Assembly: GCA_019058245.1 (NCBI GenBank)
Contig: JAHPZJ010000030.1
Location: 160,001-224,000 of the forward strand
Direction of reading: 5' to 3'
DNA from: Promethearchaeota archaeon
Lineage (GTDB): Archaea > Asgardarchaeota > Lokiarchaeia > Sigyniarchaeales > SOKP01
Length of the DNA: 64,000 nt
The number at the start of each line of letters is the position of its first letter. The stretch's first letter is position 1. Positions 36,475-64,000 of the stretch are shown one piece after another. A model generated the notes under the pieces. The model saw only the letters and a list, made by a program, of their open reading frames with translations. It was not told where the DNA came from and did no database searches. A program made the position numbers and the translations under genes.

Positions 36475-36521
36475 TTAATTTAAAAAAAGTTAATAAAATA
36501 TTAAGGAATCTTATTTTTTTT

Positions 36522-36701
36522 TTAGTCCAGTCTTTTTTTCATTTTTAGTCTCAAGGCTTCTAGTCTTCTCTCATCTTTTGCCTCAAGACTTTCTGAAAAA
36601 TCATTAGGAATGTCAATAGACATCATGACTGGAGCTTTATAAGAATCCCAATCTTTATAATAATCCAATATTAGATCAATTTCACTTGATTCTTCCTCCA
36701 A
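36522..36701 (-). CDS. Small protein (59 aa, TTG start), not in the ORF track
   Basis: GGAGGTGA RBS at 36708-36715; MEEESSEIDLILDYYKDWDSYKAPVMMSIDIPNDFSESLEAKDERRLEALRLKMKKRLD*. Confidence 0.7.
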   Translation of the reverse strand: MEEESSEIDLILDYYKDWDSYKAPVMMSIDIPNDFSESLEAKDERRLEALRLKMKKRLD

Positions 36702-36733
36702 GAATTTTCACCTCCATTTTTTATTGAAGCCTT

Positions 36734-36893
36734 CACAAGGAGAATTAAATCTACAATTGACCAATTTCAAATAAATTTCATTGAGTTGTAGTTATAAAAG
36801 AGAACAAATCAGGAAAAATTATAAGAAAGAGGTCAAGAGTTTTGATTTATTCTCTCTTAATACCACGGATTACCGGTAATACCTTACCTTGTG
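36734..36893 (-). ncRNA. Candidate structured 5' leader (multi-stem junction) of the small ORF
   Basis: Closing helix CACAAGG/CCTTGTG enclosing three hairpins; TTTATATA box at 36957-36964 on the minus strand. Confidence 0.4.
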
Positions 36894-37136
36894 TCTTACA
36901 CCAATAATCCATAGTATAATGTGAAAAACTCATTATTTAAAATAAGTTTGAATAGCTATATAAATCTTCCCATTCCAATCCCATTTATCAAATTATTTTT
37001 AATTTCAATAATTTTTCTCAAGGAATTAAGGAAAGAATAATTATAATGACCTTGTTTTATAGCAAATAAACTAATGATAAATTTATTAACATATATTTTT
37101 ATTATCTTCAAAATAAATTAAAAGATTTATTGGGCG

Positions 37137-40100
37137 ATGAACTCCGAAAATAAAAATTATTCACAAGAAAAAATTAAAAAGGCTACGGAATTTCTTCAGA
37201 AGTCATGGTGGTTTTGTTTTTACTTAGTTATTGCTCCATTGATTATTGCTTTTTTAATAATAGTTATTTTTATTCAATCTGGAGTAAATATTTATATCTC
37301 ATTAGCATTTTCTGTTTTAAGTTTTATTTTTACACTACTTTTCTTTTTTAAAGTATATGATAAATACAGAAGAAAGCCATTTTTTCTAAATAAAGAGAAT
37401 AACCCTACAGCCAGAATTCATAGTTTGTTCTTAATTTCTATATTTTCTTTGATAATAACACCAATATTTTACTTAATTTCACTTATGAATATCCCATTTA
37501 CTTTACTTCCTCTAATTAGTTATGCTATTCTTTATAATATCATCTATTATTATTATTATCTTCAACCATTAGATTATTTCAACTTAGAAGAGAAGGAGTT
37601 TAAACATACTGAGAATATCAAGTTAATGTTTATACAACCGTATAACTTTATAATATTTCTTAATTATTTAATCCATATCATTTTCTTAGGAATTACAGCA
37701 TCTACAGAATTTTCTTGGCTTTTCAGTTTAATTTCAGATATAGCAGTCTATATACTCACTTTAGTATCAACTAAAGATCAAATTAGGAAGATTAAGGAAC
37801 TTATTGCTGAGAATAAGTCAATTGTAAAAGATTTAATTGTTTTTAAAAAGAAATTTGTAGTTTGTATAGTTAATCTTCTTTTTATCTTATTAATTCAAAT
37901 GCCTTTTGTCAGTATCATTATGTTCAGTCTTAGAGGTGTTCTATATTCAAGTTTAGAACTTATAAGTTATGCATTTTTAACAGTAATTTTCATCTTGTTC
38001 TATTTTAAATCTAGGTACTATATTAGTGTGTACTATAACACAAGACTTAAATTGTATATAGTATCTGATAATATCAATATTTCAAAAGAAAGTACGTTTA
38101 TAGAATATTTCAAGTATCAAAAACATAATTCTTATTTATCCGGAGTGTTAATTCTATTAATTACTATATTCTCTTTTTTAATTGAAATTCCTCTTTTAAA
38201 TGTAATTATTCTTCCTTTCATTTTTATTCTTCTTTATTATGAACAAAAATCAGATCTCTGTCCTAAAAAATATAGCAGATTTGTAGCTTTATTAAATTCA
38301 ATTTCAATATTGGCTTCTATCGCTTTTGGTTTAATACCATTGATATCTGAGATGCCCTTATTAAACTTTTTAATTTTTTGTCTTTCATTGTATTTTGTAT
38401 TACAAATTTTTGCTAGATATAAATATTTCATTAAGGATGATATTCTTTTATACCAAAATCTACTTGCTATAGCAAGTTTTATATTATTATTTTACTCATT
38501 CTTTCCGATAGCTATTATCGAATATACAACCTTTACATCAAACCCAATAATAATTCTTATTTCAAATATACTTTTACATTCATTGATTATTTTAGTAACC
38601 TTCTTAATTTCATTATATATTCTAGGGGTTCGATATTTTTATGCTAAGACCCCGAAATCATTTAAGACCTATATTATCATAATAAGTTTTTTAATTGAAC
38701 TTGTTATTTTTGCACTCATCAATTTTAGGAACTTTTTAGTATTGGGATTTATCAATTTTTTATATTCACTTTGCATCTCATCAATTTTATTCCCAATTGT
38801 TTTCATAGTTTTCCTTTTTGTAAATTATAGTCTAAATGCATTCAAATTAGAATATTTCTTAACCTTATGTTATTATATTTTTTGGATTTTTATTGTTGAT
38901 TTCTTCATTTCTCTGCTGATTATCTCTTTACTCAATATTTACATCATTGTTCTAATATTAGATTGTTTAATTTCATCCATTTTTTATTATTTTATATTGA
39001 AATTTGGTATGGAATTAGAAAAAATAAATGAATCCAAATTTAATACAAATAATAAAATCAATTCCTATTTAATTGGTATTGAGCTTTTATCATTATTTTT
39101 TACTATTTTTTTTATAGCTTTTCAATCTATCTCCTTAGCAGAAAATTTAATCTATTCATTATATTTATCATTACTAATCGTCGGTGGATTAGTCAATCTA
39201 TTTTCAAAAATAGAAATTTTTTCGGAAGACCTCATTCTTAGAATAAATGCATTTATTCTATTATATAGCTCATTAATAGCTTTTTACTTCATTTTATTAC
39301 TTACTTTTAATACAACTTATGTTTATATAGTTCCTCTACTGGTCTTTTCTACAATTTTTTACTTACCGCTTTTATTTTTGAAGAAGAAAAGCATATTCAA
39401 AAACTTTATATCTAAGTTATTAAAAGTAAATAGTCTGCTATTTTCAGCAACATTATCCTTAATTCCCATTATTATAGGTTTGGAAATGTTCAATTTAGGA
39501 TTATATTTTGATTTAATTTTTTTAATATTTTCTGTAATCAATTTTAGCTTATATATTGTATTCGCTCTTCTTGGTATTTACTATTTCTTATTGAAGAAAA
39601 TCAAGGTTGATGAAAATCGAGTTAATCTGATTCTTAAATTACATATATTAATAGCAGTAATTATTGGAATTACAACGATATTTTATTATCCATTTTTTCT
39701 ATTAACCGGGACATTCTATTGCATAGTATTACCATTGATTTTTATGTTCTGCTTCTTTTATATACCTCTTTTTTACTCTTACAAGAAACAGTTGTTTAAT
39801 GTTAAACTAGTTAAATTAGAAATAGTTTTAATTACTATAGCTTTAACAGGTTTATTTACTTCAATACCTTCAATAGTTAGTTTAGATTTAATAAATAAAA
39901 GTTTGATATTTTATTCTAAGGTTTTACCTGTAAATATTATAAACTTTTCCTTCTACATTTTCTTTATTTTTTTATTAATTCTTAGTAGTCTATTTAAAAA
40001 ATTAGAATTAAAAAGCAAATTTATTTTAAATTTAGGTAGATTACAATTCTTTACCATATTTTGTATTTCTATTACTACACTATTTTTCTACCCATTTTCA

Positions 40101-43100
40101 TTGTTAAGTGGATTTTTTTATAAAATCCTTATTTCTTTCATTGCTTTATTGTCTTCTTGGTTTTTTATTTTCTATTATGCTTATAGAAAAGAATATTTCA
40201 ATCTAGTATTAGTAAGACTATTAACAATCTATAATTTTACTGTATTATCGTGCTTAATTATTTCGTTACCATTTATAATTGGATTAGAAGTATTTGGATT
40301 CGCAGCTAATTTCATCCTAATAATAACCCTAACACTATTAATTCTATTTGTTTTTCTTAATATTTTTGAGATTATCGCAAATAAAATTAAGTTAAAAGAA
40401 AGATATATAAAATATTCTAAATTGCTTAAACCAATTCTCTTTTTTCTATTATCATTATTTTTGTCTTATTATATATCTACGATTTTTATTATTAGACTTA
40501 CACTAACTCCTATAACTTTTCTAGTGTTAAGTTGTAGCTTTTTAGTTTTTTTCTTATTAAGTATGTATACCCTGGAACTTACATTTTCCTATGATCCCAA
40601 ATTATTGACATTAAAAAAGTATAAAGATATTATCATTTATGGAATCATTCTTTCATTATCATCAATTTTTACTTTTTTAAGCATATCAACAAATATTCTT
40701 TCATCTTTTTTTCTAACTTCAATAATATTTAATTCATCTATTATAATTGGTGTTTTTACTTCATTATTTCTTTTATTTTTGATTCTGGGTGACAATTTAA
40801 TAGAATTGAAATTACCGCAGGTAAAAATAATCTGCGAATTAATTGCATGGGTAATTATAAAGGTAATATTATGCATTTTAACATTTTTTCTTATTGACGT
40901 TTTTGCGTATCAATTCTTTATTGTAAATAAAATATTGCTAGTTTCATTAATTTTTACCGTTCTTACACCCTTAAGTCTTCATATATTAAAAAATCTGAGT
41001 TTAGTATCATCTAAAAATAAATTACTAATAAAAAAACTAACTGAAATTGTATTTATTATTTCTTTATTAGGAATTTATACTGAAATTTCTTACAATTTAT
41101 TAAATTTAATACCACTATTTTATCAGAACTCACTTTTGAAAATAGTATCTCTCACTATTAATCTGATTTTAATTTTATATTATTTTTCTATAAAGTATAA
41201 TAGAGTACTAGAAGAACATTCTTCACTCAATATTTACAGCTTTTATTTAACATCCTTCTTATTATTTTTCAGCTTTCTTTATTTTAATACTAATCTTTCA
41301 GTTTTCCTTATATTACTATCGTATGTATTAATTCTTTCTAAGAGGAGCATAATTTCTATTTTTCGGTTTTTATCATATTTCTTACTAAGTTATTATACTT
41401 TTACTACGATTCTAGTAATTATAAATTTCTATGGGGTTACAATAGCGTTTAATTTAACAAATCTAAGTATATTCATCAATCTATATCTCTTAACGACAAT
41501 TTTCGTTTTGGTTTTCTCTATTATTCTAAATATAAAGAAAAATAATACCCAAGAAAAATTTACATTATATTCTCTAATTTCTATACTCTCTTATGTTTCT
41601 CTCATGAACTTTACAAATATTTTATCAATTTATAACATTACAATTTCACTTTTCATATTCTTATTCTTTATGGGAATTTACTTTCATCATCAAAAAGATG
41701 AACGTTATAAATGGTTTATTAAGCCTTGTTTAATTTTGTTTATCTTTGACTTTATTAGCTTTCTATCATATTCATGGTTCTTTAATAATCAGATTTATGA
41801 TACTTACAATCCAATTTTAACTTTCACTCTTACTCTTAGTATAACAGGTTTTGGATTCGTTTTATTGTATAATGAGGCTCCAAGAAAATTTCGAAAGAAA
41901 TTCTTCTATATTATACTAGCATCAATAGTTATTGCTTTTCCAATCTTTATCTATTTTTTAATGATTGCGTCTTTATCAATGCCATTATTATCTATAGTTC
42001 CATTAATAGTCGCAATAGATTTTGGTGTTTTTCTTTTTTATCTTTGTATTGCAATATATCACTGGAGGATTTCATGGGCAATTTGGAAATCTGGATGGTA
42101 TGTGTGGAATATTCTACCTTTTGTTAACTTCTTTATTATATATCAAAGTTTTACTGGAATTGATGTATTCACTGACTCATTGCAATTTGGATTAATTCAA
42201 GTAGAAGGTTCATTAATAATTTCAATGATAATATGTTCTTTATTTTTCTTGCCAGTATTGTATACAAAAATTAAAAAATATTTTTTTTATATAATATTTA
42301 TTATATGGGGTGAAAGTCTATTTTTACTCTATTGGGTTAACTCAAATTTATTTGTCAGTGATCTAGTATTAAGAAATTTATCTTTTGTTTTATTTTCAGT
42401 TATACTATTAATGCCTTTATTCGCGGGATTTAAATATTGGAAAATGGTGTCGATATTTTGGCTTTTATTAACTATAATTAATAGTTTATTTTTATTGGGC
42501 TATTTAGTTTCTATTGGGGTCAATTTAGAAATGGTAATTTCAATTGACATTTTAGTTTTTGGGTTATTTTTTATTGTTTATTCATTTTTTCCAAATATAA
42601 GATCCTATGGAGTTATATTAATAAGTGCCTATCTTATTACACTTTCAGGTATTTTCTCCACAGTTTTATTCATTTTTTATTTATTATTATTAGATCCCAT
42701 ATTTTCTGTGAACATTAGTTTTATCATAGTTGGTTTAAGTCTTTTTTCCTCAAAATATTTAAAATTATCGAATAGAATTATAGATCATAGTCTCTCTTGG
42801 GTATTAATATTCAACTTAGCATGGTTAACTTTCAATACTTTCAATCTATTTCCAGGATTTGTTGTGTTTGCATTCTCTTTAGCACTAACTGTTTTTGGAT
42901 TTTCATTTTTCATCTTTAATCACTACAAAATGAAAATGCCTATTAGAATTATAATTCCAAGTTCAATTATCACGATTGGGGCTTCTCTTTCAGTCACCTC
43001 TTTTATATCTTTAATTTTTAAAGCATCCCCCGGGATATTAATCTCTACGTTTTCTTCAGTATTTATAGTATTCTTATATTTTTTAATTAAAGAATATCGA

Positions 43101-45737
43101 TATTTGCTTTGGTTTGGTTTTCCTATTCCTATAACTACTCCGATATTAGAAGCAATGTTAATATTCGACGTTATTAAACCGTTTTGGTTGTTAACTTGGT
43201 CAATGTTATATCTCATTTCTTTCCAAATTATTATAAATTTTTTCAAAAGGTCAATACAAAAAGAAACCCATAAAATACAAGAAGAGGCGCAAGAAATAAA
43301 AAATAGCATCTTTGCGATTTATAAAGATAAAAATCAGTTAAAATGGTTTAATTTTATATGCTTTCTATTAAATTCAATTTGTATTTCTTTATTCGTAGGA
43401 ATAATTTTACCAAATTTAATTAAAAATATATTATTTACCCAAATTTTAATTGTCTACCAAATTTGCGATTTTTTACTTTTATGGTCATTGCTCTTTTTAC
43501 TATGTATGAAATATATTGAAAAGTCAGGTTTAGATGTGAAAATTAAAGATATTTCACCATTTTTTAATAAATTAAGTCTTATTTTGTATATTTTTATTTC
43601 ATTTGCTTCAGGAGTGAATCTTTTACTTTATCTTTTACTTATTAACCAGAATTTGGTTGTTGTTACACTTTCATTTTTGTTATTAGTTAGTGGAATTGCT
43701 TTTTTAGAAGGATTCTTGTTAGATAGACTTTATTTTCACTTTTTGTTTAAATCGATCCGAAATTTGTTTAGTATATGTTCATGGTTGCTTTTTAGTACTT
43801 TATTAGCATTAGATTTAATTTTTATTTTCCAAATCTTAGATTATTTGAATTTCCTTATAGTTAATGTAATTATATTTCTGGAAGTATGCTTATTGTTTAA
43901 TACGATAAAAATTTATAATAATATGTTACCTGATCAAAAACATCCGAATTTTTTGGAAAAGATGCATTCAATTCTATTTTTACTTTTATATCTTGAAATT
44001 AGTTTAATTATACTTGGATTATTGCTCAATTATTTAGGATTATTTGAGAGTATCCTCTCTTCTTTATTAATATTATTCATTTTAACGATATTAGAGATTC
44101 ATTCGATAAAAAAAATAACAAGATCTTATGCTACATTTGTTCATTCAATCAGCTTTATACTTATTTCAATAATGCTACTTATGATTTTAAATCAATATAT
44201 CTCTCAATATTCTATCTTATTGAGTATAGAGTTTTTTATATTTGTTATAATGCAGTTTTATTCGAATTTCTCTCTTATGAAATCATTAAAATTATTATTC
44301 CCTCAGAATGAAATTGAATTCAAGAAGCTTGAAAATTCTATTCAACATATATTAGGTTGGTTGTTTTATGGATTATTTTGTTTTTGTCTATTGCAATTAT
44401 TAATTTTACAAAGAATTGAATTCCAATTGATTTTATTAATTTTAAGTAGTACAATCCATATCTTAATGATTATTGATATAAAAGTATTAAAATTTTTAGA
44501 AAAAAGTGCTTCTTATATTAAGTTAATATCTTGGGGTTTTATTATGACCTTTTCCTCATTCTATTTAATTTGGGTTTATAATACTTTTTTTATTAGCGTA
44601 TTTTTTACTGTTATACCCCTCATTGTTTTAATCCTTATCATTGAATTTGCCTATCTTTTCAAATTATTGTCTATTTGGGAAGTAATTGCTTTAAATAAAG
44701 AGAAAATTAGATTTTTACTAGTTATAATTACATATATTAATTTCATTACTTGGCCTTTTTATTTTTTTAGTTTAGATCCCTTTTTGAATTTTAATTTGAT
44801 ACTTATCGCGATTTTAATTATGTTATTAATAACTTTAATTGATGCAGTTTTGAAAGAAAAATTGCGAAATTTATTGAAACTAAGCTCATTTATGATATTT
44901 GGAGCATTATTATCTACTGATCTATATTTACTATTAAACAGTATTCCAAATTTTGATATTATATTAAACCTAAGCATTTCATCTTTGATTTTTGTACTAT
45001 TTTTAGTAATACTTGTTAATCCTTTTAAAAAACATTGGCATATAGCACTGCCTTTTTGGTTGGTAATATTTTTCTTATTAAGTACTATTATCAATCAAAT
45101 TTCAATATCATCTATTTATAGTATTGTTTTCTTTGTGATAATGCTTCTATTATTCCCATTTATTTTCTTATTAGAACAGTTAAAAGAACTTTTTAATTGG
45201 CTTGTTGATACAATTTTAAAAATTTTTAAAAATCTCAAAATAATGATCAAGAATTTTCTTTTAAAAATTAGCCATTTTATAAAGATTCACTATAAGACTA
45301 TTTGGATAATTACTAATATATTTATCTCAGTTTTTTTTGGTATTCTTTTCTCAGAGATAATATTGGGGCTTTTAAATCCTATTCATGCAACTCTTCTAAT
45401 ATTTCCTATTTTTGGTTTACTTTATTCATTTATACCTTCTAAAAAATCTGATGATGTTGATATAAGATTTCAACGGAGAATGATTCGTATAATCATTAGT
45501 TGGATTAGTGTTATTATAGTTTTAATCATTTTTATCACACCCCTTTGGCATATTTTCATTATTTGGATATCAATTTGGATTGCAGGGGCAATTTTATTAC
45601 CTTTAATGATTTTTTATGAAAGAAAAGAAAAAATATCTATTAAATGGCGATTTTATACGCTTATTTCTTTAATTATTTTGCTTATAATTTTTGGAATAAT
45701 CTTTAGCTTACAGGTTTTAGGTGTTTTAGTACTTTAA
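37137..45737 (+). CDS. Giant polytopic membrane protein of unknown function (2866 aa)
   Basis: Uninterrupted 8.6-kb ORF in AT-rich DNA; roughly 85-90 hydrophobic segments counted by eye, with short K/R-rich loops. Confidence 0.9.
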   Translation: MNSENKNYSQEKIKKATEFLQKSWWFCFYLVIAPLIIAFLIIVIFIQSGVNIYISLAFSVLSFIFTLLFFFKVYDKYRRKPFFLNKENNPTARIHSLFLISIFSLIITPIFYLISLMNIPFTLLPLISYAILYNIIYYYYYLQPLDYFNLEEKEFKHTENIKLMFIQPYNFIIFLNYLIHIIFLGITASTEFSWLFSLISDIAVYILTLVSTKDQIRKIKELIAENKSIVKDLIVFKKKFVVCIVNLLFILLIQMPFVSIIMFSLRGVLYSSLELISYAFLTVIFILFYFKSRYYISVYYNTRLKLYIVSDNINISKESTFIEYFKYQKHNSYLSGVLILLITIFSFLIEIPLLNVIILPFIFILLYYEQKSDLCPKKYSRFVALLNSISILASIAFGLIPLISEMPLLNFLIFCLSLYFVLQIFARYKYFIKDDILLYQNLLAIASFILLFYSFFPIAIIEYTTFTSNPIIILISNILLHSLIILVTFLISLYILGVRYFYAKTPKSFKTYIIIISFLIELVIFALINFRNFLVLGFINFLYSLCISSILFPIVFIVFLFVNYSLNAFKLEYFLTLCYYIFWIFIVDFFISLLIISLLNIYIIVLILDCLISSIFYYFILKFGMELEKINESKFNTNNKINSYLIGIELLSLFFTIFFIAFQSISLAENLIYSLYLSLLIVGGLVNLFSKIEIFSEDLILRINAFILLYSSLIAFYFILLLTFNTTYVYIVPLLVFSTIFYLPLLFLKKKSIFKNFISKLLKVNSLLFSATLSLIPIIIGLEMFNLGLYFDLIFLIFSVINFSLYIVFALLGIYYFLLKKIKVDENRVNLILKLHILIAVIIGITTIFYYPFFLLTGTFYCIVLPLIFMFCFFYIPLFYSYKKQLFNVKLVKLEIVLITIALTGLFTSIPSIVSLDLINKSLIFYSKVLPVNIINFSFYIFFIFLLILSSLFKKLELKSKFILNLGRLQFFTIFCISITTLFFYPFSLLSGFFYKILISFIALLSSWFFIFYYAYRKEYFNLVLVRLLTIYNFTVLSCLIISLPFIIGLEVFGFAANFILIITLTLLILFVFLNIFEIIANKIKLKERYIKYSKLLKPILFFLLSLFLSYYISTIFIIRLTLTPITFLVLSCSFLVFFLLSMYTLELTFSYDPKLLTLKKYKDIIIYGIILSLSSIFTFLSISTNILSSFFLTSIIFNSSIIIGVFTSLFLLFLILGDNLIELKLPQVKIICELIAWVIIKVILCILTFFLIDVFAYQFFIVNKILLVSLIFTVLTPLSLHILKNLSLVSSKNKLLIKKLTEIVFIISLLGIYTEISYNLLNLIPLFYQNSLLKIVSLTINLILILYYFSIKYNRVLEEHSSLNIYSFYLTSFLLFFSFLYFNTNLSVFLILLSYVLILSKRSIISIFRFLSYFLLSYYTFTTILVIINFYGVTIAFNLTNLSIFINLYLLTTIFVLVFSIILNIKKNNTQEKFTLYSLISILSYVSLMNFTNILSIYNITISLFIFLFFMGIYFHHQKDERYKWFIKPCLILFIFDFISFLSYSWFFNNQIYDTYNPILTFTLTLSITGFGFVLLYNEAPRKFRKKFFYIILASIVIAFPIFIYFLMIASLSMPLLSIVPLIVAIDFGVFLFYLCIAIYHWRISWAIWKSGWYVWNILPFVNFFIIYQSFTGIDVFTDSLQFGLIQVEGSLIISMIICSLFFLPVLYTKIKKYFFYIIFIIWGESLFLLYWVNSNLFVSDLVLRNLSFVLFSVILLMPLFAGFKYWKMVSIFWLLLTIINSLFLLGYLVSIGVNLEMVISIDILVFGLFFIVYSFFPNIRSYGVILISAYLITLSGIFSTVLFIFYLLLLDPIFSVNISFIIVGLSLFSSKYLKLSNRIIDHSLSWVLIFNLAWLTFNTFNLFPGFVVFAFSLALTVFGFSFFIFNHYKMKMPIRIIIPSSIITIGASLSVTSFISLIFKASPGILISTFSSVFIVFLYFLIKEYRYLLWFGFPIPITTPILEAMLIFDVIKPFWLLTWSMLYLISFQIIINFFKRSIQKETHKIQEEAQEIKNSIFAIYKDKNQLKWFNFICFLLNSICISLFVGIILPNLIKNILFTQILIVYQICDFLLLWSLLFLLCMKYIEKSGLDVKIKDISPFFNKLSLILYIFISFASGVNLLLYLLLINQNLVVVTLSFLLLVSGIAFLEGFLLDRLYFHFLFKSIRNLFSICSWLLFSTLLALDLIFIFQILDYLNFLIVNVIIFLEVCLLFNTIKIYNNMLPDQKHPNFLEKMHSILFLLLYLEISLIILGLLLNYLGLFESILSSLLILFILTILEIHSIKKITRSYATFVHSISFILISIMLLMILNQYISQYSILLSIEFFIFVIMQFYSNFSLMKSLKLLFPQNEIEFKKLENSIQHILGWLFYGLFCFCLLQLLILQRIEFQLILLILSSTIHILMIIDIKVLKFLEKSASYIKLISWGFIMTFSSFYLIWVYNTFFISVFFTVIPLIVLILIIEFAYLFKLLSIWEVIALNKEKIRFLLVIITYINFITWPFYFFSLDPFLNFNLILIAILIMLLITLIDAVLKEKLRNLLKLSSFMIFGALLSTDLYLLLNSIPNFDIILNLSISSLIFVLFLVILVNPFKKHWHIALPFWLVIFFLLSTIINQISISSIYSIVFFVIMLLLFPFIFLLEQLKELFNWLVDTILKIFKNLKIMIKNFLLKISHFIKIHYKTIWIITNIFISVFFGILFSEIILGLLNPIHATLLIFPIFGLLYSFIPSKKSDDVDIRFQRRMIRIIISWISVIIVLIIFITPLWHIFIIWISIWIAGAILLPLMIFYERKEKISIKWRFYTLISLIILLIIFGIIFSLQVLGVLVL

Positions 45738-45909: not shown

Positions 45910-47334
45910 GTGATCCAAAAAATGGAAAGTGGAACTAAACGAATAGTAGCAATTGTTCTTATTGTGGTTATAATTGTTGGTGTCGGTTTAGGGGTGTGGT
46001 TTATCTTAATACAACCAACATCCCATGGCTGGACAACCCCAGGAATCTCAGGTATACCAGAAGAACGATGGATCAAGATCGGAATGATGGGTGATAGAGG
46101 TGAACTTGAAGGTGATCAAAATTGGATGGGTGGTTACCTATCAGCGAGGAAAATAAATGAAGCTGGTGGTGTTACCATTAATGGTAGCCAATGGGCTATT
46201 GCCCTTTCATGGGAAGATACGGACGAATCAGCTTCGGATTTCTCTACATCAAGAGCTGTTGCCGCAGCAGAGAGAATGGTATACAAGCAAGAGTGTGATT
46301 TTGCTGTTGGTGGCTTCAGAACAGAATCCTTACTAGCCTACCGGGAACCTTTCATGACCAATAAAATACCCTTTTTGATTACAGGAGCAATGACAGACAT
46401 TTTTTGCACAGATGTCGAAGATAATTATAACACTTATAAATATACTTTTAGAATCAGTCCTTACAACTCATCACATTCGTCTTCGGCTTTTGTAACAGCA
46501 GTACTTTATATGTATGGATATCTCCGAGCCGTATATGGAAGTGATGATGTTAACCATATGGGTATATTAGCAGAAAATCTCGCTTGGACAGAGGGTATAC
46601 GAACTGTCGTCGCTGCTTATATAGATGGAACGTATGGCGCGGGAACTGTACCCTCAGATGGAGTTATTGCTTTTGATCCAGAGGTTACTCCAACAATTAT
46701 GAATAGCAACTTAGAACAATTAGAAGATGGTGGATGTGATGTAGTACTTATAGCAATTTCGCTAGGTGCTGGACTTACAATGACCCAACAATGGGCACAA
46801 CATCAACGAAAATTCTTATTATTTGGTTCTAATGTTCAAGCCCAAACAGCAGGATACTGGGATAAAACTAATGGAGCTTGTAATTATGAAATAGGATCAA
46901 CGACAGCCACAAGATGCAATAAAACCCCAAAGACTATCGAAGCTTATGATGATTTTATTGATACCTTTGATGAACATCCTATTTATATAGGATTTGGTGC
47001 TTATGATGCTGTAAGTCTTATTGCAGAAATATGCGAAGAAACGAATTCAATTAGTGCAAATGATTTTATAGCAAAAATGGAAACATTTACTATAGATAAT
47101 CCTAGACATGGTGGTGCTGGTGGTGACCCCACCGCTTGGTGGCCCACTACTCATGACCTTGTTGCTGGGTATCAAGGAGGAACCCTTTTCGCATATGGTA
47201 TCTGGTTTCAGTGGCAAAACGGTACTAAAACACTCATTCCCTCATTCACAAGCCCACCACAATACCCAAGTACTCTATCACCAATGGGCACATTGAAAAT
47301 ACCTGATTATTTTGGTTGGGATTATGGAGCATAG
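45910..47334 (+). CDS. Liv-type (branched-chain amino acid family) ABC substrate-binding protein
   Basis: N-terminal TM; KIG, A..INEAGGV, VGGFRTE, Y.FR, AYDAV. Confidence 0.88.
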   Translation: MIQKMESGTKRIVAIVLIVVIIVGVGLGVWFILIQPTSHGWTTPGISGIPEERWIKIGMMGDRGELEGDQNWMGGYLSARKINEAGGVTINGSQWAIALSWEDTDESASDFSTSRAVAAAERMVYKQECDFAVGGFRTESLLAYREPFMTNKIPFLITGAMTDIFCTDVEDNYNTYKYTFRISPYNSSHSSSAFVTAVLYMYGYLRAVYGSDDVNHMGILAENLAWTEGIRTVVAAYIDGTYGAGTVPSDGVIAFDPEVTPTIMNSNLEQLEDGGCDVVLIAISLGAGLTMTQQWAQHQRKFLLFGSNVQAQTAGYWDKTNGACNYEIGSTTATRCNKTPKTIEAYDDFIDTFDEHPIYIGFGAYDAVSLIAEICEETNSISANDFIAKMETFTIDNPRHGGAGGDPTAWWPTTHDLVAGYQGGTLFAYGIWFQWQNGTKTLIPSFTSPPQYPSTLSPMGTLKIPDYFGWDYGA

Positions 47335-48260
47335 GCTACAAAACATCAAATAATAATACAACTAAATATTTTACAAAATATCTTTTTTTTTATTTATTTT
47401 CTTTTGGTTGTTAAATCAAGATTATTTTAAAATTATTCAATCATATCTCAATATTTTTTGTCTAATAGAAGGAATATTTCTTTCTTTCACAAAAAAGGAT
47501 ATTAAAGAATCGAATTAGTGAAAAATAAAAAGTTTATATAATCAAATTAAATAATAAAATCATATTCTTATAAAAAGGAATACCATTTCACTGGTTTTTT
47601 ATAGTTTTTATTCTTTATGGTAATGTTTTTGCTTAAATTTTAATCAATAACAATCCAATTATTTATAAATATTCTTAGCTTTTTGGAAAATTCATAATTC
47701 ATATTCTAAATATCGATCTTTCCTTGAGAGATAGAATTAGCCCTATAGTTGTCAGATTGTTGGATTATCGCATAATTTAATAGCTACTCATTATTTACTA
47801 TTTTTCCGATATTTCCAATTTGTTAATGGACGATAGCCATCAATCTTTAAAAGTAGATACTTTTTAATAGAAAATCTAACCTTTTTCAAATAAATTACAA
47901 TATCTTTGATTTATGAGAGTAGTTATTTTTAATTAATGAGAAACATCTCATAATTTTATAAATCCTCTGAGAGTTTTCTTAAATGTTAATATTAAAAGAG
48001 AAACATAAAAATGGAAAAGTAAATTTCAAGAAATTATAACATTATTTTAAAAATGAGGTTTGAATTCAATAGAACTTGGAGATTCACCTAAATTGATATC
48101 ATTTAATTGAAAATTGCGCTAAACAACTTTAATTTCACAATATTATCTTTATTACAATTCTGTAAATTACTTCACTCCGAAAAAAAATTTAAATGGAGCA
48201 GAAGATTTATAAAAGATGTAAGAGAAATATTATTATTAAAAAACTTTGGAGTAGATTATT

Positions 48261-49154
48261 TTGTTTGCTAGTGATTTATTAGAAATGCTATATGTAGGTT
48301 CTGCTGATGGTGCCATTACAGCATTAGTAGCCATTGGTTTTTCATTAGTTTATGGTGTTGGAGGTGTAACGAACCTAGCTCATGGGGCATATTTTATGCT
48401 AGCGGGATATATGTTATTATGGATTTTAACATGGGGTCCTATTTTTTCAGAACTTATATGGTTATCAGTGGTTATAGTATTAGTAATTATTGCATTTATA
48501 GGAGCTTTATCTTACCTTGTTCTTATAAAACCTTTACAAAATTCTCATATAAATATGATATTAATAACTTTTGCGTTTGCTTTTTTCTTAGAACTGATAG
48601 TAAAAGAGATCTCAGGTACTCAACCTGAACCTATAGATCAATACAAATTATCGGATATAATTGTTGTGATTGGAGGTGTTTCAATGGAGGTTCGAGTTCT
48701 TTTACAAATAATTATAGGTTTAATTACTGTTGCGATATTTGGATTATTTATTAATAAATCAAAACTTGGAAAATCTATTCGTGCTGTTTCTCAAGATAAG
48801 GAAGCTGCGACACTAATGGGTATAAATTCTGATAGAATTCTTTTATATACTTTCATAATCGCATCATTTTTAGCAGGATTTGCAGCTTATTTAGCGATCC
48901 CAGGTGCTAATTTAATGGGCCCTTCAATGGGATGGAATTATTTAACAAATTCGATGGCAGTAGTCATTCTTGGAGGATTGGGAAGTCTTACAGGAAGCGT
49001 GGTAGCGGCATTTATTCTTAATTATGCAATGAGTTTTACTCTTGTTTTTATACCTAAAGGTGAAATTTGGACGGCTATAGTACCTATGGTGGTTATTGTT
49101 GTAATGCTTTTAGTTAGACCCCGTGGAATATTTGGCAAAAAAGAGTTAAAATAA
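48261..49154 (+). CDS. livH: Liv-type ABC permease
   Basis: ALVAIGFSLVYGV..VTNLAHG, GKSIRAVSQDKEAA.LMGIN, ILGGLGS, RPRGIFG. Confidence 0.9.
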   Translation: MFASDLLEMLYVGSADGAITALVAIGFSLVYGVGGVTNLAHGAYFMLAGYMLLWILTWGPIFSELIWLSVVIVLVIIAFIGALSYLVLIKPLQNSHINMILITFAFAFFLELIVKEISGTQPEPIDQYKLSDIIVVIGGVSMEVRVLLQIIIGLITVAIFGLFINKSKLGKSIRAVSQDKEAATLMGINSDRILLYTFIIASFLAGFAAYLAIPGANLMGPSMGWNYLTNSMAVVILGGLGSLTGSVVAAFILNYAMSFTLVFIPKGEIWTAIVPMVVIVVMLLVRPRGIFGKKELK

Positions 49155-49187
49155 AATATTAATATCTTAAAAATAGGTGAAGTAAAA

Positions 49188-50228
49188 ATGGAAGTAAAAA
49201 TGATATCGAAAAAAAGTATAAAAAATAAAGTATCTGGAACACAGAATTATTTGACAACTTGGATTAAATCTTTTTCTGGTTCTTTAACTATATTTTGTCT
49301 GATAATACTCTCTTTTCTACCCTTTTTTTCTCAAGATCGGGCTTATGTTTCTTATTTTATACCTCAATTTACATTCTTTTTTATTTACGCGATATTTGCA
49401 GCAAGTTGGGATATAGCTACTGGACTTGCAGGACAAGCTAATTTTGGACAGTCTATTTTTTTTGGTTTGGCCGGATATATAGGCGGTGCCCTTATTATTG
49501 AAATGGGCGTTCCTTCTTGGATAGCAATAATAATCGCTGTAATAGGAGCAACATTTATAGGATTTCTTGTAGGAATTCCTGCATTAAAAATAAAGGGTCC
49601 ATATTTAATGTTAGTAACTTTAGTCCTCAGTTTTATAATACTGCGGGTTCTAGCAACAAGCCATTCAGGACCACCACTTTATGGGTATGAAGGAATATCA
49701 GGACTTCCAAAATTGAACCCTAACCCAATAATAGAATATTTCATATTGTTTATTTCCTTAATAGTTTGTTTTATAATTATGATGTCGATATCTAAATCAA
49801 AATTAGGAACTATCCTAAGATCAATTCGTGATGATGAAATAGGATCAGAGGCTTCAGGAATTAACACCATGAAATATAAACTTATTGCATTTATGCTATG
49901 TGCGTTATTCTCGGGACTTGCTGGGATTTATTTCGGTTTACATTATCAAACTGTAAATCCTGCTGGAAATTTAAGTATGACTATCTCTTTTCTCGCTATT
50001 ATCATGGCAGCTTTAGGGGGAATTGGAACAATCAGAGGATCGCTGGTAGGGGCATTTTTTTATGTTTTTCTTGAATTTGTTCTTGTCGAAATTGGATTAG
50101 ATATGGATGTTGTACATATAGTTTTTTCAATTATTTTATTACTAGTTATAAGATTTGCTAGTCGTGGTCTTTTAGCACCTCTTTTAGATCGTTTAAGAGA
50201 TCTATGGGATGTTTTGTTAGGAAGATAA
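49188..50228 (+). CDS. livM: Liv-type ABC permease
   Basis: GLAGQANFGQ, GPYL..VTL, SIRDDE.G.EASGIN, LGGIGT..G. Confidence 0.9.
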   Translation: MEVKMISKKSIKNKVSGTQNYLTTWIKSFSGSLTIFCLIILSFLPFFSQDRAYVSYFIPQFTFFFIYAIFAASWDIATGLAGQANFGQSIFFGLAGYIGGALIIEMGVPSWIAIIIAVIGATFIGFLVGIPALKIKGPYLMLVTLVLSFIILRVLATSHSGPPLYGYEGISGLPKLNPNPIIEYFILFISLIVCFIIMMSISKSKLGTILRSIRDDEIGSEASGINTMKYKLIAFMLCALFSGLAGIYFGLHYQTVNPAGNLSMTISFLAIIMAALGGIGTIRGSLVGAFFYVFLEFVLVEIGLDMDVVHIVFSIILLLVIRFASRGLLAPLLDRLRDLWDVLLGR

Positions 50229-50271
50229 AAAATTAAATATATTAAAATTTTAAAAAAAGGGAGTAAAACAA

Positions 50272-51012
50272 ATGGGGGTTCTCTTAGAGGTTAAAAATCT
50301 CACAAAAAAGTTCGGTGGATTAACAGCGGTTAATGATTTCAGTTTTGAAATAAACCGTGGAGAATTTATCGGATTGATCGGACCAAATGGAGCTGGAAAA
50401 ACAACTATATTCAACCTTATTAGCGGAATGGAGAAACCAACCTCAGGGTCAATTCATTTTGATGGTATTGATATTTCTGGTAAATTACCTTTTAGGATTG
50501 TGAATTTAGGAATTGCTAGAACATTTCAATTAGTTAGATCATTTAAATTTCTAAGTCTATTGGATAATGTTCAAGTCTCATGTCTTTCAAAAAGAGGTAA
50601 GGCTGCTTCAAAAACAATAGGCACAGAAGCATATGCAAGTTCAATTCTTCGTTCAGTTGGTCTTATAGATAAAGCTTCAGTTCCTCCTATAGTATTACCT
50701 CATGGTGATTTAAGGAAATTACAGATTGCTAAGGCGATTGGAAGTAATCCAGAATTACTTCTTCTTGATGAGCCATTTAGTGGTCTTTCTTATGAAGAAC
50801 AAGTAGGTATAACTGATTTGATTAAAAAATTACATAGCGAAGGTGTAACAATTTTTATGACTGGACACGTTTTACGAGAACTTATGGCATTAGTTCCGAG
50901 AGTTATTGCTATGCACCAAGGTAAATTTATTGCTGATGGTCCTCCAAGTGAGGTTGCAAATAATAAAATTGTACTCGAAGCATATTTAGGAAAAGGTGAA
51001 GGATTTGCTTGA
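50272..51012 (+). CDS. livG: Liv-type ABC ATP-binding protein
   Basis: FGGLTAV, GPNGAGKTT, GIARTFQ, LLLDEP, EAYLG. Confidence 0.92.
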   Translation: MGVLLEVKNLTKKFGGLTAVNDFSFEINRGEFIGLIGPNGAGKTTIFNLISGMEKPTSGSIHFDGIDISGKLPFRIVNLGIARTFQLVRSFKFLSLLDNVQVSCLSKRGKAASKTIGTEAYASSILRSVGLIDKASVPPIVLPHGDLRKLQIAKAIGSNPELLLLDEPFSGLSYEEQVGITDLIKKLHSEGVTIFMTGHVLRELMALVPRVIAMHQGKFIADGPPSEVANNKIVLEAYLGKGEGFA

Positions 51013-51709
51013 AATAAAAAGAATTTATCATTATTATGGGAGCGCAAAAGCGCTTGAAGAAGTAAATTTAAAAATTGACGAAAAGTCATTAGATGCTGTT
51101 ATTGGTCCAAACGGAGCTGGAAAATCTACTCTCCTTAGAGTTATATCTGGTTTGGAGGAACCTTACAGAGGAAAAATAGAATTCCAAAATGAAAGAATAG
51201 ATGGTTTAAAAGCATATACAATCGCACAAAAAGGAATTTCGCATTGCCCAGAACGACGTAGATTGTTTTATGATATGAATGTTGAAGATAATATTAAGAT
51301 GGGGGCATATCTATTAAAAGATAAGGTTAGATACAAAAAGATGAAAAATTTTATTTATGAATTATTTCCTCGGTTAAAGGAGAGAAGAAAACAAAGGGCT
51401 GGAACATTAAGTGGTGGTGAACAACAAATGTTAGCAATAGCACGGGCAATTATATCAAATCCAAAATTACTTCTATTGGATGAACCTTCACTAGGCTTGG
51501 CTCCAAAAATTAAGGAAAGTATTTTTGTAGCTATTAAAAAAATAAAAGAAGAAGGAACAACAACTTTATTAGTCGAGCAAGATGCTACTTTAGCTATGGA
51601 CGTTGCAGAGAATATTCATATCCTTGAAGAAGGAAAAATTGAAATGAGTGGCACAAAAGAAGAATTAATGAAAGAACCTCGAGTTAAAGAAGCATATTTA
51701 GGTATTTAG
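50996..51709 (+). CDS. livF: Liv-type ABC ATP-binding protein
   Basis: GPNGAGKST, AGTLSGGEQQMLAIARA, LDEPSLGLAP, LVEQ, EAYLG. Confidence 0.93.
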   Translation: MKDLLEIKRIYHYYGSAKALEEVNLKIDEKSLDAVIGPNGAGKSTLLRVISGLEEPYRGKIEFQNERIDGLKAYTIAQKGISHCPERRRLFYDMNVEDNIKMGAYLLKDKVRYKKMKNFIYELFPRLKERRKQRAGTLSGGEQQMLAIARAIISNPKLLLLDEPSLGLAPKIKESIFVAIKKIKEEGTTTLLVEQDATLAMDVAENIHILEEGKIEMSGTKEELMKEPRVKEAYLGI

Positions 51710-51720
51710 GTGATGAAAAA

Positions 51721-53154
51721 ATGTCTGAACCATCATTAGAAAATTTGTTAAGGGATGCCAGAGTTGATCTGGTATTATCTAGAATAGAGAGTAATCCATC
51801 TGTAATTAGTGAAGTTATTAAATATTTGGATAGTTCAATAAGATCTATAAAATTCAATTCAATTAACGTTTTAGGGCAAGTAGGAGACAAATCCAAAACC
51901 GCTGTTCCTAAGTTAATAAAACTTTTAGAGGATGAGGATTGGAGTATTTGTCGAGAAACTGTACGTTCTTTGGGAAATATTGGAGAGCTTGCAAAAGATG
52001 CAATACCCAATCTATCGAAATTGCTTAATAGTAAAGAAATATCTATTCGCAAAGAAGCCGCAATAAGTCTTGGTAAAATAGGAAATCCAACTAAAGATTC
52101 AATTTCAGGTTTAGTTAAGGCATGTAATGATGATAGTGAGGAAGTTCGAACTGAAGCAGCAAGAAGCATTGGAGAACTAGGGCCAGAAGCTCAAGGATCT
52201 ATACCACAATTAATGAAGTGTCTTAAAGATGCAGATTGGGCGGTTAGAACAGCTTCTGCTCAATCAATTAGTAAGATTGGAAAAGGATCTACAATAGCCA
52301 TTCCTCAACTGATTCAATCATTAGAAGACAAAGATTGGAGAGTACAATACAGAGTAATAAATACATTGGCGGATATTGGTCGAGAAGCTGTTCAAAGCCT
52401 TTTAGAAGTATTAAACCATAAGAAAAAAAATGTCAGAATTGGAGCAATTGATGCTTTAAGTGAAATGAAAATAAGTGATCCAGAAGTTATAAATAGGTTA
52501 GCTATTCTATTAAAAGATAAAAAAGAAGCTGTACGAGGAAAAGCCGCATATGCTCTTCGAAATATTGGAAAAGATAGCATTCCAGCCTTAGTTAAAGCAC
52601 TTGATACAGCTAATAAAAAAATGCAGATCGTAATTCTTACAGCAATAGGAGGAATTGGTAAGGATGCAGCAGAGGTAATCCCCACTATTATAAATTTTCT
52701 AAAGCATCCTGAACAAGATAATGAACTTCCACTCTCACAGTCGTTCTTTGGAAGAATAGGACAAGCATTTTCAACATTTTTTACTGATCCAACCTCAACA
52801 AAAAGTAAAATTCGTGTTGAAGCAGCAAGAACTCTCGGTAGAATTGGACCAGAATCGGAAAATGTTATAAAAGCCCTTGAAATAGCATTAAGAGATCCAA
52901 AGAAGAATGTTCGTCGGGAAGCCGCTCTTGCGTTAGGTAAATTTGGATCATTATCAAAAATGAGTATTCCATCTTTGATCAATGCATTAAATGATAGAAG
53001 TCCAGATGTAAGATGGAGAATTTCTGAAGCGTTGGGTAAGATAGGTGAAAAAACAACAGAAGTTGTTTCAATCCTAAATGAATTAATACATGATAAATGT
53101 GATTATGTATGTGAATCAGCTTATAATGCTCTTGATGAATTAACTGGTGAATAA
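51721..53154 (+). CDS. HEAT/PBS-lyase-like repeat protein
   Basis: Tandem ~31-33-aa repeats of the type IP.L...L.D....VR..AA.ALG.IG. Confidence 0.92.
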   Translation: MSEPSLENLLRDARVDLVLSRIESNPSVISEVIKYLDSSIRSIKFNSINVLGQVGDKSKTAVPKLIKLLEDEDWSICRETVRSLGNIGELAKDAIPNLSKLLNSKEISIRKEAAISLGKIGNPTKDSISGLVKACNDDSEEVRTEAARSIGELGPEAQGSIPQLMKCLKDADWAVRTASAQSISKIGKGSTIAIPQLIQSLEDKDWRVQYRVINTLADIGREAVQSLLEVLNHKKKNVRIGAIDALSEMKISDPEVINRLAILLKDKKEAVRGKAAYALRNIGKDSIPALVKALDTANKKMQIVILTAIGGIGKDAAEVIPTIINFLKHPEQDNELPLSQSFFGRIGQAFSTFFTDPTSTKSKIRVEAARTLGRIGPESENVIKALEIALRDPKKNVRREAALALGKFGSLSKMSIPSLINALNDRSPDVRWRISEALGKIGEKTTEVVSILNELIHDKCDYVCESAYNALDELTGE

Positions 53155-61696: not shown

Positions 61697-64000
61697 TTAA
61701 ATAAAGCATGACATATCTTTCTGAATAGACTTCTTATTATAATCAGGTGTCAGTAATTCCTCAAGTTCAGGAAACTCAAAAGGGAACATGTTTTCAAAAG
61801 CTCTTTTCAATAGTTCGACATATTTCTTTCTATCATATTCATGCTTTTTATCGTCGTAGAGATCTGAAAGGATAACTTTTTTTTCAGGAAAATTTGGATT
61901 AGCATCAGCGTTAAGAATTATATATCTCACATTTATTCCTGCAGATGCTACTACACCTGATCTTTCTAGTTGTCTGGCAGCAACAGCTTGGAAGCTATTT
62001 ACTTTATATTGATTTGGACTTCGAGAGATTTTCTGCTTAATCGTTAACTCATCACGAGATACTTTCCCGGAGTACACTCTCTCCACATATTCGTAAAGTT
62101 TTTTTTTGGCTTTTGGAATCCTTTCAATAAACTGAGCAACAGTATGTGAACCTTGAAATATATTAATAAATGCATATTGTGCATCTTTCACTATTTTTGG
62201 CATATCTCTCCGCCTTACTTCGATGCCTCTCACCTTTATTTCACCATCACTTTTTATCCCCCAATAATGACTAAGGGCTGGAACATCTGGTTCTGCTCGG
62301 GAAGGTAGGAAAGTGATAACATTATATCTTCCCTCCCAATGCATAGGAATACTAGTACTATCAGATATTTCATTTGCAATTTCCTTTGTTATTTTCTCAA
62401 ATTCTTCTGGAGTTCTTCCTTTTGTATCTTGAAGCCACATTGAATCAACAATTCCATGGATTACTTTACAACCATATTTTTTTGCAATCTCTGCCGATCT
62501 CAATAAAAACTCACGAGCAAAAGCACAAACTGTTTGATGTGCCTCAATCTTGCCAAAACGAGCATTCTTAAATCCTAAATATCCAAAGCTTACTACAAGC
62601 ACCCACTTTAATGCAATATCCGTGAATTTGTATCGAAGATCATCATGTGTCTTGTTATATTCTTTGCACTCTAAACGTTTTTTCAACGGTAGGCTAATTG
62701 ATTTTGAAATAATACCCTCACGTTTAGTACATATATGGAAATTGGTTCCTGGTACTTTAATTCCCGTACCATCATTTTTACAGCATTTACAGTTAATTGT
62801 CTCCGAAGAAATGTTAAAATTTGCCATTAATGAGGGATACATCGAAGAAAAATCTAATTCTACAACTTGATCAAAGACTCCGATTAATGGTTCAAATATA
62901 TGACCTCCTCGATCATTTGTAATTAAATCCATACCACTTCGAAAACCTTCGGGGCTCTTCTTGAAAGGTGGGATAAGATGATCGAGTTTATATGCATTAT
63001 AATATTGAATTGATTGCAAAGCACCCCCAATTGTTATTCTACATAATCTTTGCATTGGTACTCGAGACACTCTTGCAACTTCAATAACTCCAGGTATATT
63101 ACCCTCACTAAAATGTAGACTGCCATAGGTAGTAGTATCTAAATGAAAGCGTCCTGTAAAATAGACTTGTGTTTTAGAACGTCGCATTATTATTCCATAT
63201 GACATATAATGATCTGAATTTCCTGATAGATTAAAGATGCAGTTTTTTAGTGGTGTTTTTGTGCGAGAAAAATAGAGATCATTTGAAACTCGATTTACTG
63301 ATGCTCGAGCAGCTAAGTAAGGAAATAAAAATTCATCTCCTCCATGTGTTAATATGATATCAGGATCCAATCGCTCAATTACCTTACTAATAGTCTTGAT
63401 GGTTTCAGCTTCATCAGCTTTATCGATTAAAATCTTTTTTTTTCTCAACCCATCTGCTCTAGGGATGTTAGCATTTTCATCTTTTTCAATAATACTTACT
63501 TCTGCGTATGCCAGAGGGTCGTTATAATATGATCTCATTCCGCGCTGCTCTATTTTAATATCAAGCCATATAGCTTTTAAAGGAGGTAACTCATAAAACA
63601 ATTCTTCGTTGTTATCTTTTAACTCTAATGACTGTAGACGCATTGAGTAAAAGCCAGTTTTTTTATTATCCTCAAACTTGACCTTAAAATTGCAAAGAGA
63701 CATTGGAAATAGATCATTTATGTAAAAATACATCTGAGAGATTGGAAGATCCGTGTTATACAAAGTAAACAAGTCAATCTTTTCGATTTCTTCGATTGTC
63801 TTCTTAAATACAGATGGTTTTACTACAGAAACTCCAAAAATTTTTGTTTTTTCATGATCTTCGAGTTTCACATATTTTTCACAGATTCTAACAGACATCA
63901 CATTGTCATGTGATCTAAGAATTTGTTTGAATCTTTTGAAGTCTTTACCAACATGTTGTTTTGGAACTGCGAAAAATTCAGGATGAAAGTCATGGTAAAT
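61697..64000 (-). CDS. polB2: Family B DNA polymerase, PolB2-type; 5' end lies beyond the window
   Basis: DFSSMYPS, KW.LV.SFGYLG, HGIVDS in place of YGDTDS, KVRGIE.RR; frame is open from 63901 to the window end (IYHDFHPEFFAVP...). Confidence 0.88.
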   Translation of the reverse strand: MYHDFHPEFFAVPKQHVGKDFKRFKQILRSHDNVMSVRICEKYVKLEDHEKTKIFGVSVVKPSVFKKTIEEIEKIDLFTLYNTDLPISQMYFYINDLFPMSLCNFKVKFEDNKKTGFYSMRLQSLELKDNNEELFYELPPLKAIWLDIKIEQRGMRSYYNDPLAYAEVSIIEKDENANIPRADGLRKKKILIDKADEAETIKTISKVIERLDPDIILTHGGDEFLFPYLAARASVNRVSNDLYFSRTKTPLKNCIFNLSGNSDHYMSYGIIMRRSKTQVYFTGRFHLDTTTYGSLHFSEGNIPGVIEVARVSRVPMQRLCRITIGGALQSIQYYNAYKLDHLIPPFKKSPEGFRSGMDLITNDRGGHIFEPLIGVFDQVVELDFSSMYPSLMANFNISSETINCKCCKNDGTGIKVPGTNFHICTKREGIISKSISLPLKKRLECKEYNKTHDDLRYKFTDIALKWVLVVSFGYLGFKNARFGKIEAHQTVCAFAREFLLRSAEIAKKYGCKVIHGIVDSMWLQDTKGRTPEEFEKITKEIANEISDSTSIPMHWEGRYNVITFLPSRAEPDVPALSHYWGIKSDGEIKVRGIEVRRRDMPKIVKDAQYAFINIFQGSHTVAQFIERIPKAKKKLYEYVERVYSGKVSRDELTIKQKISRSPNQYKVNSFQAVAARQLERSGVVASAGINVRYIILNADANPNFPEKKVILSDLYDDKKHEYDRKKYVELLKRAFENMFPFEFPELEELLTPDYNKKSIQKDMSCFI

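Follow-up and report, generated by a model that had tools for sequence, protein, structure and literature searches.

The locus studied here raises the question of whether a chain of 2866 residues, consisting almost entirely of membrane-spanning helices, is a genuine protein and, if so, how it is built and what it might do in the membrane. It lies in the window (the whole stretch of DNA that was analysed, 64,000 nucleotides from a Promethearchaeota archaeon), where it is encoded as follows:

37137..45737, (+): giant gene, 2866 aa, about 89 transmembrane (TM) helices, 337 kDa, single copy in the genome of the window

The frame is the longest of its genome, in which the runner-up in helix number has 21, about one quarter of the number in the giant protein. 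Leu, Ile and Phe make up about half of the residues (L 18%, I 17%, F 12%, with S at 9%; GRAVY 1.19). Hydropathy windows yielded between 82 membrane segments under strict and 89 under relaxed settings, all loops being shorter than 55 aa. In the family-averaged profile, 45 inside segments rich in Lys and Arg were counted (the N-terminus and 44 loops, with a single helix after the last), giving about 89 helices with the N-terminus inside and the C-terminus outside, a count made on that profile and not with DeepTMHMM. When helix boundaries were taken from AlphaFold (53 helices), the mean number of Lys/Arg residues was 3.1 and 4.2 in inside loops and 0.31 and 0.11 in outside loops, and all of the 26 inside loops carried at least one, an asymmetry far from chance. 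The original prediction of about 85-90 TM helices in hairpins obeying the positive-inside rule, with short polar breaks only and with neither a soluble domain nor an enzyme motif or ATPase, was thus borne out: the alternation is strict, and the protein contains no nucleotide-binding or catalytic motif. Pfam and NCBIfam scans of the 2866-aa protein returned zero matches. Across the class, the family has no conserved His or Cys and few conserved charges within helices.

That the frame is an artefact, either of misassembly or of spurious hydrophobic reading through AT-rich DNA, has in its favour the GC content of the gene (22-25%) and the lack of firm expression evidence. Against it, sequencing run X1 gave a single contig across the whole gene with 0 differences, run X2, from a different study, gave two overlapping contigs with 4 substitutions and no gap (both runs being possible sources of the assembly), and run X5 gave the identical sequence in pieces; joints with sides of 20-34 letters were treated as noise in this comparison. 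The frame is therefore intact in contigs of two studies, which settles the misassembly check proposed with the original prediction. More than 100 intact homologues and three closed genomes speak for the gene as well, as do residues that are invariant even at 20% identity. The dN/dS ratio against three relatives was 0.22-0.31 and below 0.45 in every block; the gene is under purifying selection from end to end. The artefact reading is refuted on these grounds, its probability being practically nil. No credible paralogue was found in the gene's own genome, where tblastn matches obtained without composition correction were hydrophobic noise.

The gene belongs to an unannotated family, mostly single copy and 2,500-4,900 aa in length, of which no description was found in the literature. 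A protein search returned 85 homologues (1,626-3,754 aa), the named ones being hypothetical proteins of Promethearchaeota or of bins labelled as other Asgard archaea. With a profile of the conserved core, the protein was detected in 116-118 of the 400 Asgard genomes searched. The carriers are 101 of the 134 genomes in the query's taxonomic family and 15 of the 19 that belong to the order's three other families; in the sister order a single genome out of 7 carries it, as a protein of 2608 aa with 81-87 helices and an identical Trp motif. It was not found in the 83 and 87 genomes (170 in total) of two other classes, the second of which gave three short matches only (E 6e-4 or worse). When 1.84 billion representatives were searched exhaustively, 53 matches were obtained, and all of those examined were members of the giant family. 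The family is confined to the class Lokiarchaeia and is not pan-Asgard. The search for Asgard homologues suggested earlier was accordingly productive, and the description as an undescribed Asgard protein holds in that all homologues come from Lokiarchaeia or Promethearchaeota and none is annotated, whereas it has to be narrowed in view of the two classes in which the gene was not found. Since near-complete genomes without a match exist (the gene is present in one of 10 genomes of genus g27 and in 0 of 2 of g23), losses are likely, and the gene is probably dispensable in some lineages.

Orthologues are present in the cultured species P. syntrophicum MK-D1 (DSAG12_00898, QEE15075.1, 3940 aa), H. 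repetitus (K9W44_04180, 4296 aa) and L. ossiferum, which has two paralogues (NEF87_002906, 3146 aa, and a 4908-aa copy), and in Sigynarchaeum springense (2826 aa). These proteins show 81-139 segments and loops of at most about 140 aa by hydropathy, have a core identity to the query of about 20-25%, and are colinear with it from the N-module to the C-terminus; the helix number of relatives reaches roughly 130. One fragment, P0099, is labelled as an O-antigen polymerase; the label was rejected as spurious, the Wzy-type profile being unmatched in Pfam/NCBIfam scans of all members scanned, and the Pfam and NCBIfam profiles for SCO7613-CTERM and DUF2157 were unmatched by the family. At L033:5651-14626 a frame of 2991 aa is open, yet NCBI protein P0087, which comes from an equally long contig, has 1574 aa; public annotation may shorten some members.

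The chain consists of about 44 helical hairpins with the basic loops all on one side, and is divided into constant blocks and two arms that vary in steps of four helices:

37137..38066, (+): N-module, aa 1-310, 8 TM helices, fused here
38097..39236, (+): constant-length block, aa 321-700, about 12 TM helices; the large chain starts here in split forms
39240..40436, (+): repeat arm A, three tandem units of 133-134 aa with 4 TM helices each
40437..41483, (+): linker block, aa 1101-1449, about 11-12 TM helices
41484..43166, (+): conserved core, aa 1450-2010, about 20 TM helices
42054..42491, (+): signature site, aa 1640-1785, within the core
43479..45011, (+): repeat arm B, diverged units of 125-133 aa with 4 TM helices each
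45111..45287, (+): 59-residue helix, aa 2659-2717, a TM helix whose continuation on the inside face is basic and amphipathic
45288..45734, (+): C-terminal part, five TM helices with conserved E2828

In five checked loci the N-module is a separate gene of 306-317 aa that abuts or overlaps the giant gene (E 1e-66 to 1e-119 with the N-module profile). Such split forms are scattered among fused forms on the core tree, so fission probably occurred more than once at one boundary. A programmed frameshift at the junction was rejected because the junctions differ in frame (0, +1, +2); together with a GGAG(G)-type stretch preceding the second start in three of the five, this is better explained by independent gene fission with translational coupling. 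Insertions were observed in an inside loop of the N-module, namely 85 aa with two CxxC pairs (zinc ribbon) in a single clade (P0080, P0081 and P0083, aa 138-225, L051), and 137 aa at this place in P0082.

The repeats of arm A were recovered by HHalign with probabilities up to 99.8 at offsets of 133, 134 and 267, and homologues have 1 to about 6 units (block sizes 134, 264, 402, 537 and 775). The block of arm B spans 320-1238 aa in homologues, in steps of about 125/250 aa, and four 299-aa repeats occupy its position in the 4908-aa L. ossiferum paralogue. The core is near-constant in length (about 560 aa) across all homologues, without detected internal pseudo-symmetry, and the conservation peak lies there, mid-chain, not at the C-terminus. 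Its signature site reads W1650-x2-G-x3-W1657-x3-P1661-x2-N1664, D1676, G1691-S1692, P1706, W1724-x-E1726, W1733, N1737, P1760, W1768 and W1775; the first motif (W1650 to N1664) is present in 96 of 98 sequences, W1650, W1657, P1661, N1664, P1706 and W1724 are invariant down to 20% identity, and D1676, G1691, W1733, N1737, P1760, W1768 and W1775 are almost invariant. N1664, E1726 and N1782 sit mid-membrane, E1726 being substituted in some members. The 59-residue helix has a hydrophobic moment of 0.6 and a conserved P-F-x4-E at its bend (P[FY]-x4-[ED] in 72 of 98 sequences). A conserved E and R mark the C-terminus, where the last loop (about 17 aa, basic, inside) and the motif ISIKWRFY precede the last helix; no domain follows it, and the chain stops a few residues later. 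The internal repeats and the separable N-module had both been missed in the original prediction.

Two fragments were modelled with AlphaFold, as had been suggested. The models of aa 1090-2110 (pLDDT 80.9, pTM 0.54, about 34 membrane helices) and aa 2245-2866 (pLDDT 88.8, pTM 0.59, about 20 membrane helices) are all helical, and both are predicted hairpin arrays, in agreement with the earlier proposal of an intramembrane helical array. The signature site forms two broken helices in the lowest-confidence stretch of the core model. Foldseek and VIA searches with both models gave only background-level helical matches and no solved structure, the weak Foldseek rows being mostly soluble alpha-solenoids (karyopherins, separase and TPR proteins; E 0.05 or worse, TM about 0.1), and Piezo, DUF2339 and transporters were not among the matches listed. 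Sequence searches of the PDB with core and C-terminal profiles returned zero matches to E 10. Among the ten rows of an Atlas search with the core model, the first was held by a DUF2339 protein from a bacterium (TM by target 0.47, by query 0.25; 331 aligned, rmsd 6.4), a lead only, both structures being predictions; the same rows included SCO7613-type and DUF2157 proteins (TM 0.25 and 0.39 by target). Of the named families, DUF2339 alone also came up in both feature searches, with scores of 0.78 and 0.81 that are under 0.9 and hence leads only. From hairpin alternation and these models we strongly infer that the hairpins would line up next to one another as an extended intramembrane solenoid, which is very probably the shape of the protein, and not into a compact pore bundle.

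Other helix-rich proteins were encountered. A Lokiarchaeial 972-aa protein with 24-30 TM helices (L107:196-3114; G198:C198) aligns weakly with most of the DUF2339 profile (E 9.5e-6, below the cut-off) and matches a Hymenobacter DUF2339 protein at E 8e-12; it is not scored by the giant-family profiles and may be an archaeal relative of Arc3A, distinct from the giant family. Two helix-dense proteins of 856 and 885 aa (G000 C2:216-2786 and C6:33834-36491; about 22 TM helices, mutually similar spacing) were likewise unscored by these profiles. A 280-aa frame (G000 C27:22581-23423) matches 25 residues around the ISIKWRFY motif at E 8e-5, possibly by chance.

In the query's family the giant gene follows genes for an MFS transporter, an aminotransferase and often a GH4 protein, with polB nearby. 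This neighbourhood of housekeeping genes, for which the original prediction had recommended a search, is stable inside the family and different in other families. In distant relatives, too, a polB gene is found near the giant gene; the window itself holds two family B DNA polymerase genes (13874-16789 and 61697-63901; 971 and 734 aa). Between aminotransferase and giant gene, the window has an AT-rich gap of 660 nt (36475-37136) in which a 440-aa gene of relatives is missing; the gene in this position is GH4 in L048, L051 and L054. Downstream lies a Liv-type ABC operon (45910-53154; a binding protein, two permeases and two ATPases), and after it the gene of a HEAT-repeat protein of 477 aa; this order is conserved within the genus, and a functional link was rejected because the synteny goes no further. 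A flotillin/SPFH gene is directly upstream on the same strand in three genomes of Promethearchaeum, the genus of MK-D1 (L089:4207-5442, L091:12961-14202, L092:17966-19189), and not in other genera; a functional link was rejected here too, as one genus only is concerned. Of the two L. ossiferum paralogues, the one of 3146 aa is arranged head to head with a pair of PF01553 acyltransferase genes (L127:7918-9695), and a similar gene run in MK-D1 (DSAG12_00857-00866) contains no giant-gene label. No conserved transporter or glycosyl-transferase partner adjoins the giant gene in the loci examined, and the neighbourhood points to no particular function.

The MK-D1 orthologue has an RPKM of 152, but the values of that table vary little (109-375; PMC7015854), too little for this figure to be accepted as proof of expression. 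In the L. ossiferum proteome the giant protein is probably entry GNAMCCOK_02936, to judge from the accession offset and a 40.2-kDa neighbour that agree; this entry is not among the rows listed, which are the most abundant ones, down to log2 14.4 (10.1101/2025.11.30.690169). High abundance looks unlikely, and the apparently low abundance of orthologues argues against a bulk membrane coat as a form of the membrane-shaping role that the original prediction had put forward.

As to function, we infer weakly, giving it a little less than an even chance, that the giant protein is a housekeeping, low-copy, non-catalytic organiser of a membrane patch. The invariant Trp/Pro/Asn/Glu core would be a putative site for a specific lipid or partner protein, the arms an adjustable ruler or fence setting the size and stiffness of the patch, and the C-terminal amphipathic helix a tie between the array and the inner leaflet, with the N-module as an obligatory subunit that may work fused or in trans; that core, arms and C-terminal helix act jointly in this manner is held just as tentatively. 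Arms that lengthen or shorten by complete pairs of hairpins, with a Trp-rich, non-catalytic core that stays fixed, fit a solenoid acting by extent and binding; neither the 4-TM length steps nor the four 299-aa repeats would be needed for catalysis or for a pore. The organiser is further favoured by the hairpin alternation, by the lack of nucleotide-binding and catalytic motifs and of class-wide conserved His or Cys, by the scarcity of conserved charges in helices, by two confident all-helical models whose weak Foldseek neighbours are mostly alpha-solenoids, by nearest predicted shapes that are bacterial many-helix proteins (DUF2339, SCO7613-type, DUF2157), and by a mostly single-copy gene, widespread in the order, with a stable housekeeping neighbourhood and purifying selection in every block. 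Against it count the pTM values of 0.54 and 0.59, mid-membrane N1664, E1726 and N1782, which could line a transport path, the near-complete genomes of the family in which the gene was not found, and the weak expression evidence.

Those same residues and the broken helices of the core, together with its fixed length in all homologues, would suit a transporter, flippase, membrane-protein insertase or exporter of envelope polymers in which the 20-helix core works and the arms are accessory. This is quite unlikely, since no pseudo-symmetry was detected in the core, no sequence or fold match rose above background, E1726 is replaced in some members, and no transporter or glycosyl-transferase neighbour is conserved. 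A lipid guardian, whose helix array would sequester or move damaging lipids (lyso-lipids or partner-derived fatty acids) and so protect the membrane, is modelled on Arc3A (P. aeruginosa PA5114, DUF2339, PF10101), which has 35 predicted TM helices in a number that varies, lacks catalytic residues, works on its own, is weakly expressed unless induced, and protects against lysophospholipids (PMC8926400). The Atlas and feature searches point in this direction, the invariant Trp cluster suits lipid binding, and two acyltransferase genes face one L. ossiferum paralogue; however, these neighbours are not conserved, and PF10101 (cut-off 33.6 bits) was unmatched by every family member and above the cut-off in 0 of 400 Asgard genomes, while the control search gave matches in Bacteroides and Corynebacterium. 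Nor do the giant-family profiles score the Lokiarchaeial DUF2339-like protein, and archaeal ether lipids resist phospholipase A. The guardian reading is thus an unlikely one; the family is not a member of DUF2339 by sequence, distant kinship being possible. In the loci examined, no neighbour carried a Pfam label for Arc3B (PF13163), whose adjacency is not universal in the DUF2339 family.

The original prediction had also mentioned mechanosensing, which in the Piezo sense would mean that curved four-helix arms sense tension and, through the long amphipathic helix acting as a lever, gate a pore that the C-terminal helices form in an oligomer. Piezo1 and Piezo2 have 38 TM helices, 9 THUs, a beam, a cap and a CTD (PMC12377734). 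The 4-TM repeats, the long helix ahead of the final helices, the conserved C-terminal E and R, the low abundance and the flotillin gene directly upstream in Promethearchaeum would agree with such an analogue, but Pfam Piezo profiles were unmatched by the query and by the MK-D1 and L. ossiferum orthologues and shared by no members of the core and C-terminal alignments, a cap between the last two helices is missing, as is a C-terminal domain, conservation peaks mid-chain, and the flotillin linkage is limited to one genus. The Piezo motif PF-x2-E-x6-W occurs in 0 of 98 sequences. With three features of Piezo membership lacking, the mechanosensor is quite unlikely, and the giant protein is not a Piezo: it has no homology, cap, C-terminal domain or PFEW motif.

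A bolder reading than the patch organiser, which we regard as possible and on the unlikely side, is a new class of giant, length-tunable intramembrane solenoids (80-130 helices), unrelated to DUF2339 or Piezo, that would shape or sense the Lokiarchaeial membrane, which has no wall around it, for instance where actin-filled protrusions begin or at their tips; if so, and with the same reserve, it would be the most membrane-threaded kind of protein yet described. For either, the family is conserved without a Pfam/NCBIfam entry or a solved relative, and it raises the questions of how 90-130 helices are inserted by the translocon and folded, and which membrane job needs such a span. Three carriers (MK-D1, L. 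ossiferum and H. repetitus) are cultured, and L. ossiferum proteomes are public. Being limited to Lokiarchaeia, the family bears on Asgard cell biology and not directly on eukaryote origins.

The helix number is two- to four-fold above those of Piezo (38) and Arc3A (35), so that the remark in the original prediction that Piezo has far fewer helices (38 versus about 89) stands, with Arc3A/DUF2339 as the closer precedent. With Piezo the family shares very large size, 4-TM repeat units and, close to the end of the chain of helices, a long helix on the inside, but it has more than twice the helices, and its 4-TM repeats are restricted to two arms and variable in number. Soluble alpha-solenoids (karyopherins, TPR proteins and nucleoporin scaffolds) likewise stack helical hairpins and set their length by repeat number, an analogy of architecture only, as they are soluble. 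The uncharacterised bacterial SCO7613 C-terminal domain and DUF2157 proteins are many-helix hairpin arrays too, but much shorter, similar in TM-score by target only, and without a profile match. Arc3A/DUF2339 comes closest among named shapes to the core model, both being massive polytopic proteins of densely packed TM helices that vary in number and lack catalytic residues; it differs in being bacterial, in having 35 TM helices versus 80-130, in undetected sequence homology, and in the tandem 4-TM arms, Trp-rich core and separable N-module of the giant family. The Lokiarchaeia-specific family is real and undescribed, and bacteria offer a precedent for its architecture that is one third as large.
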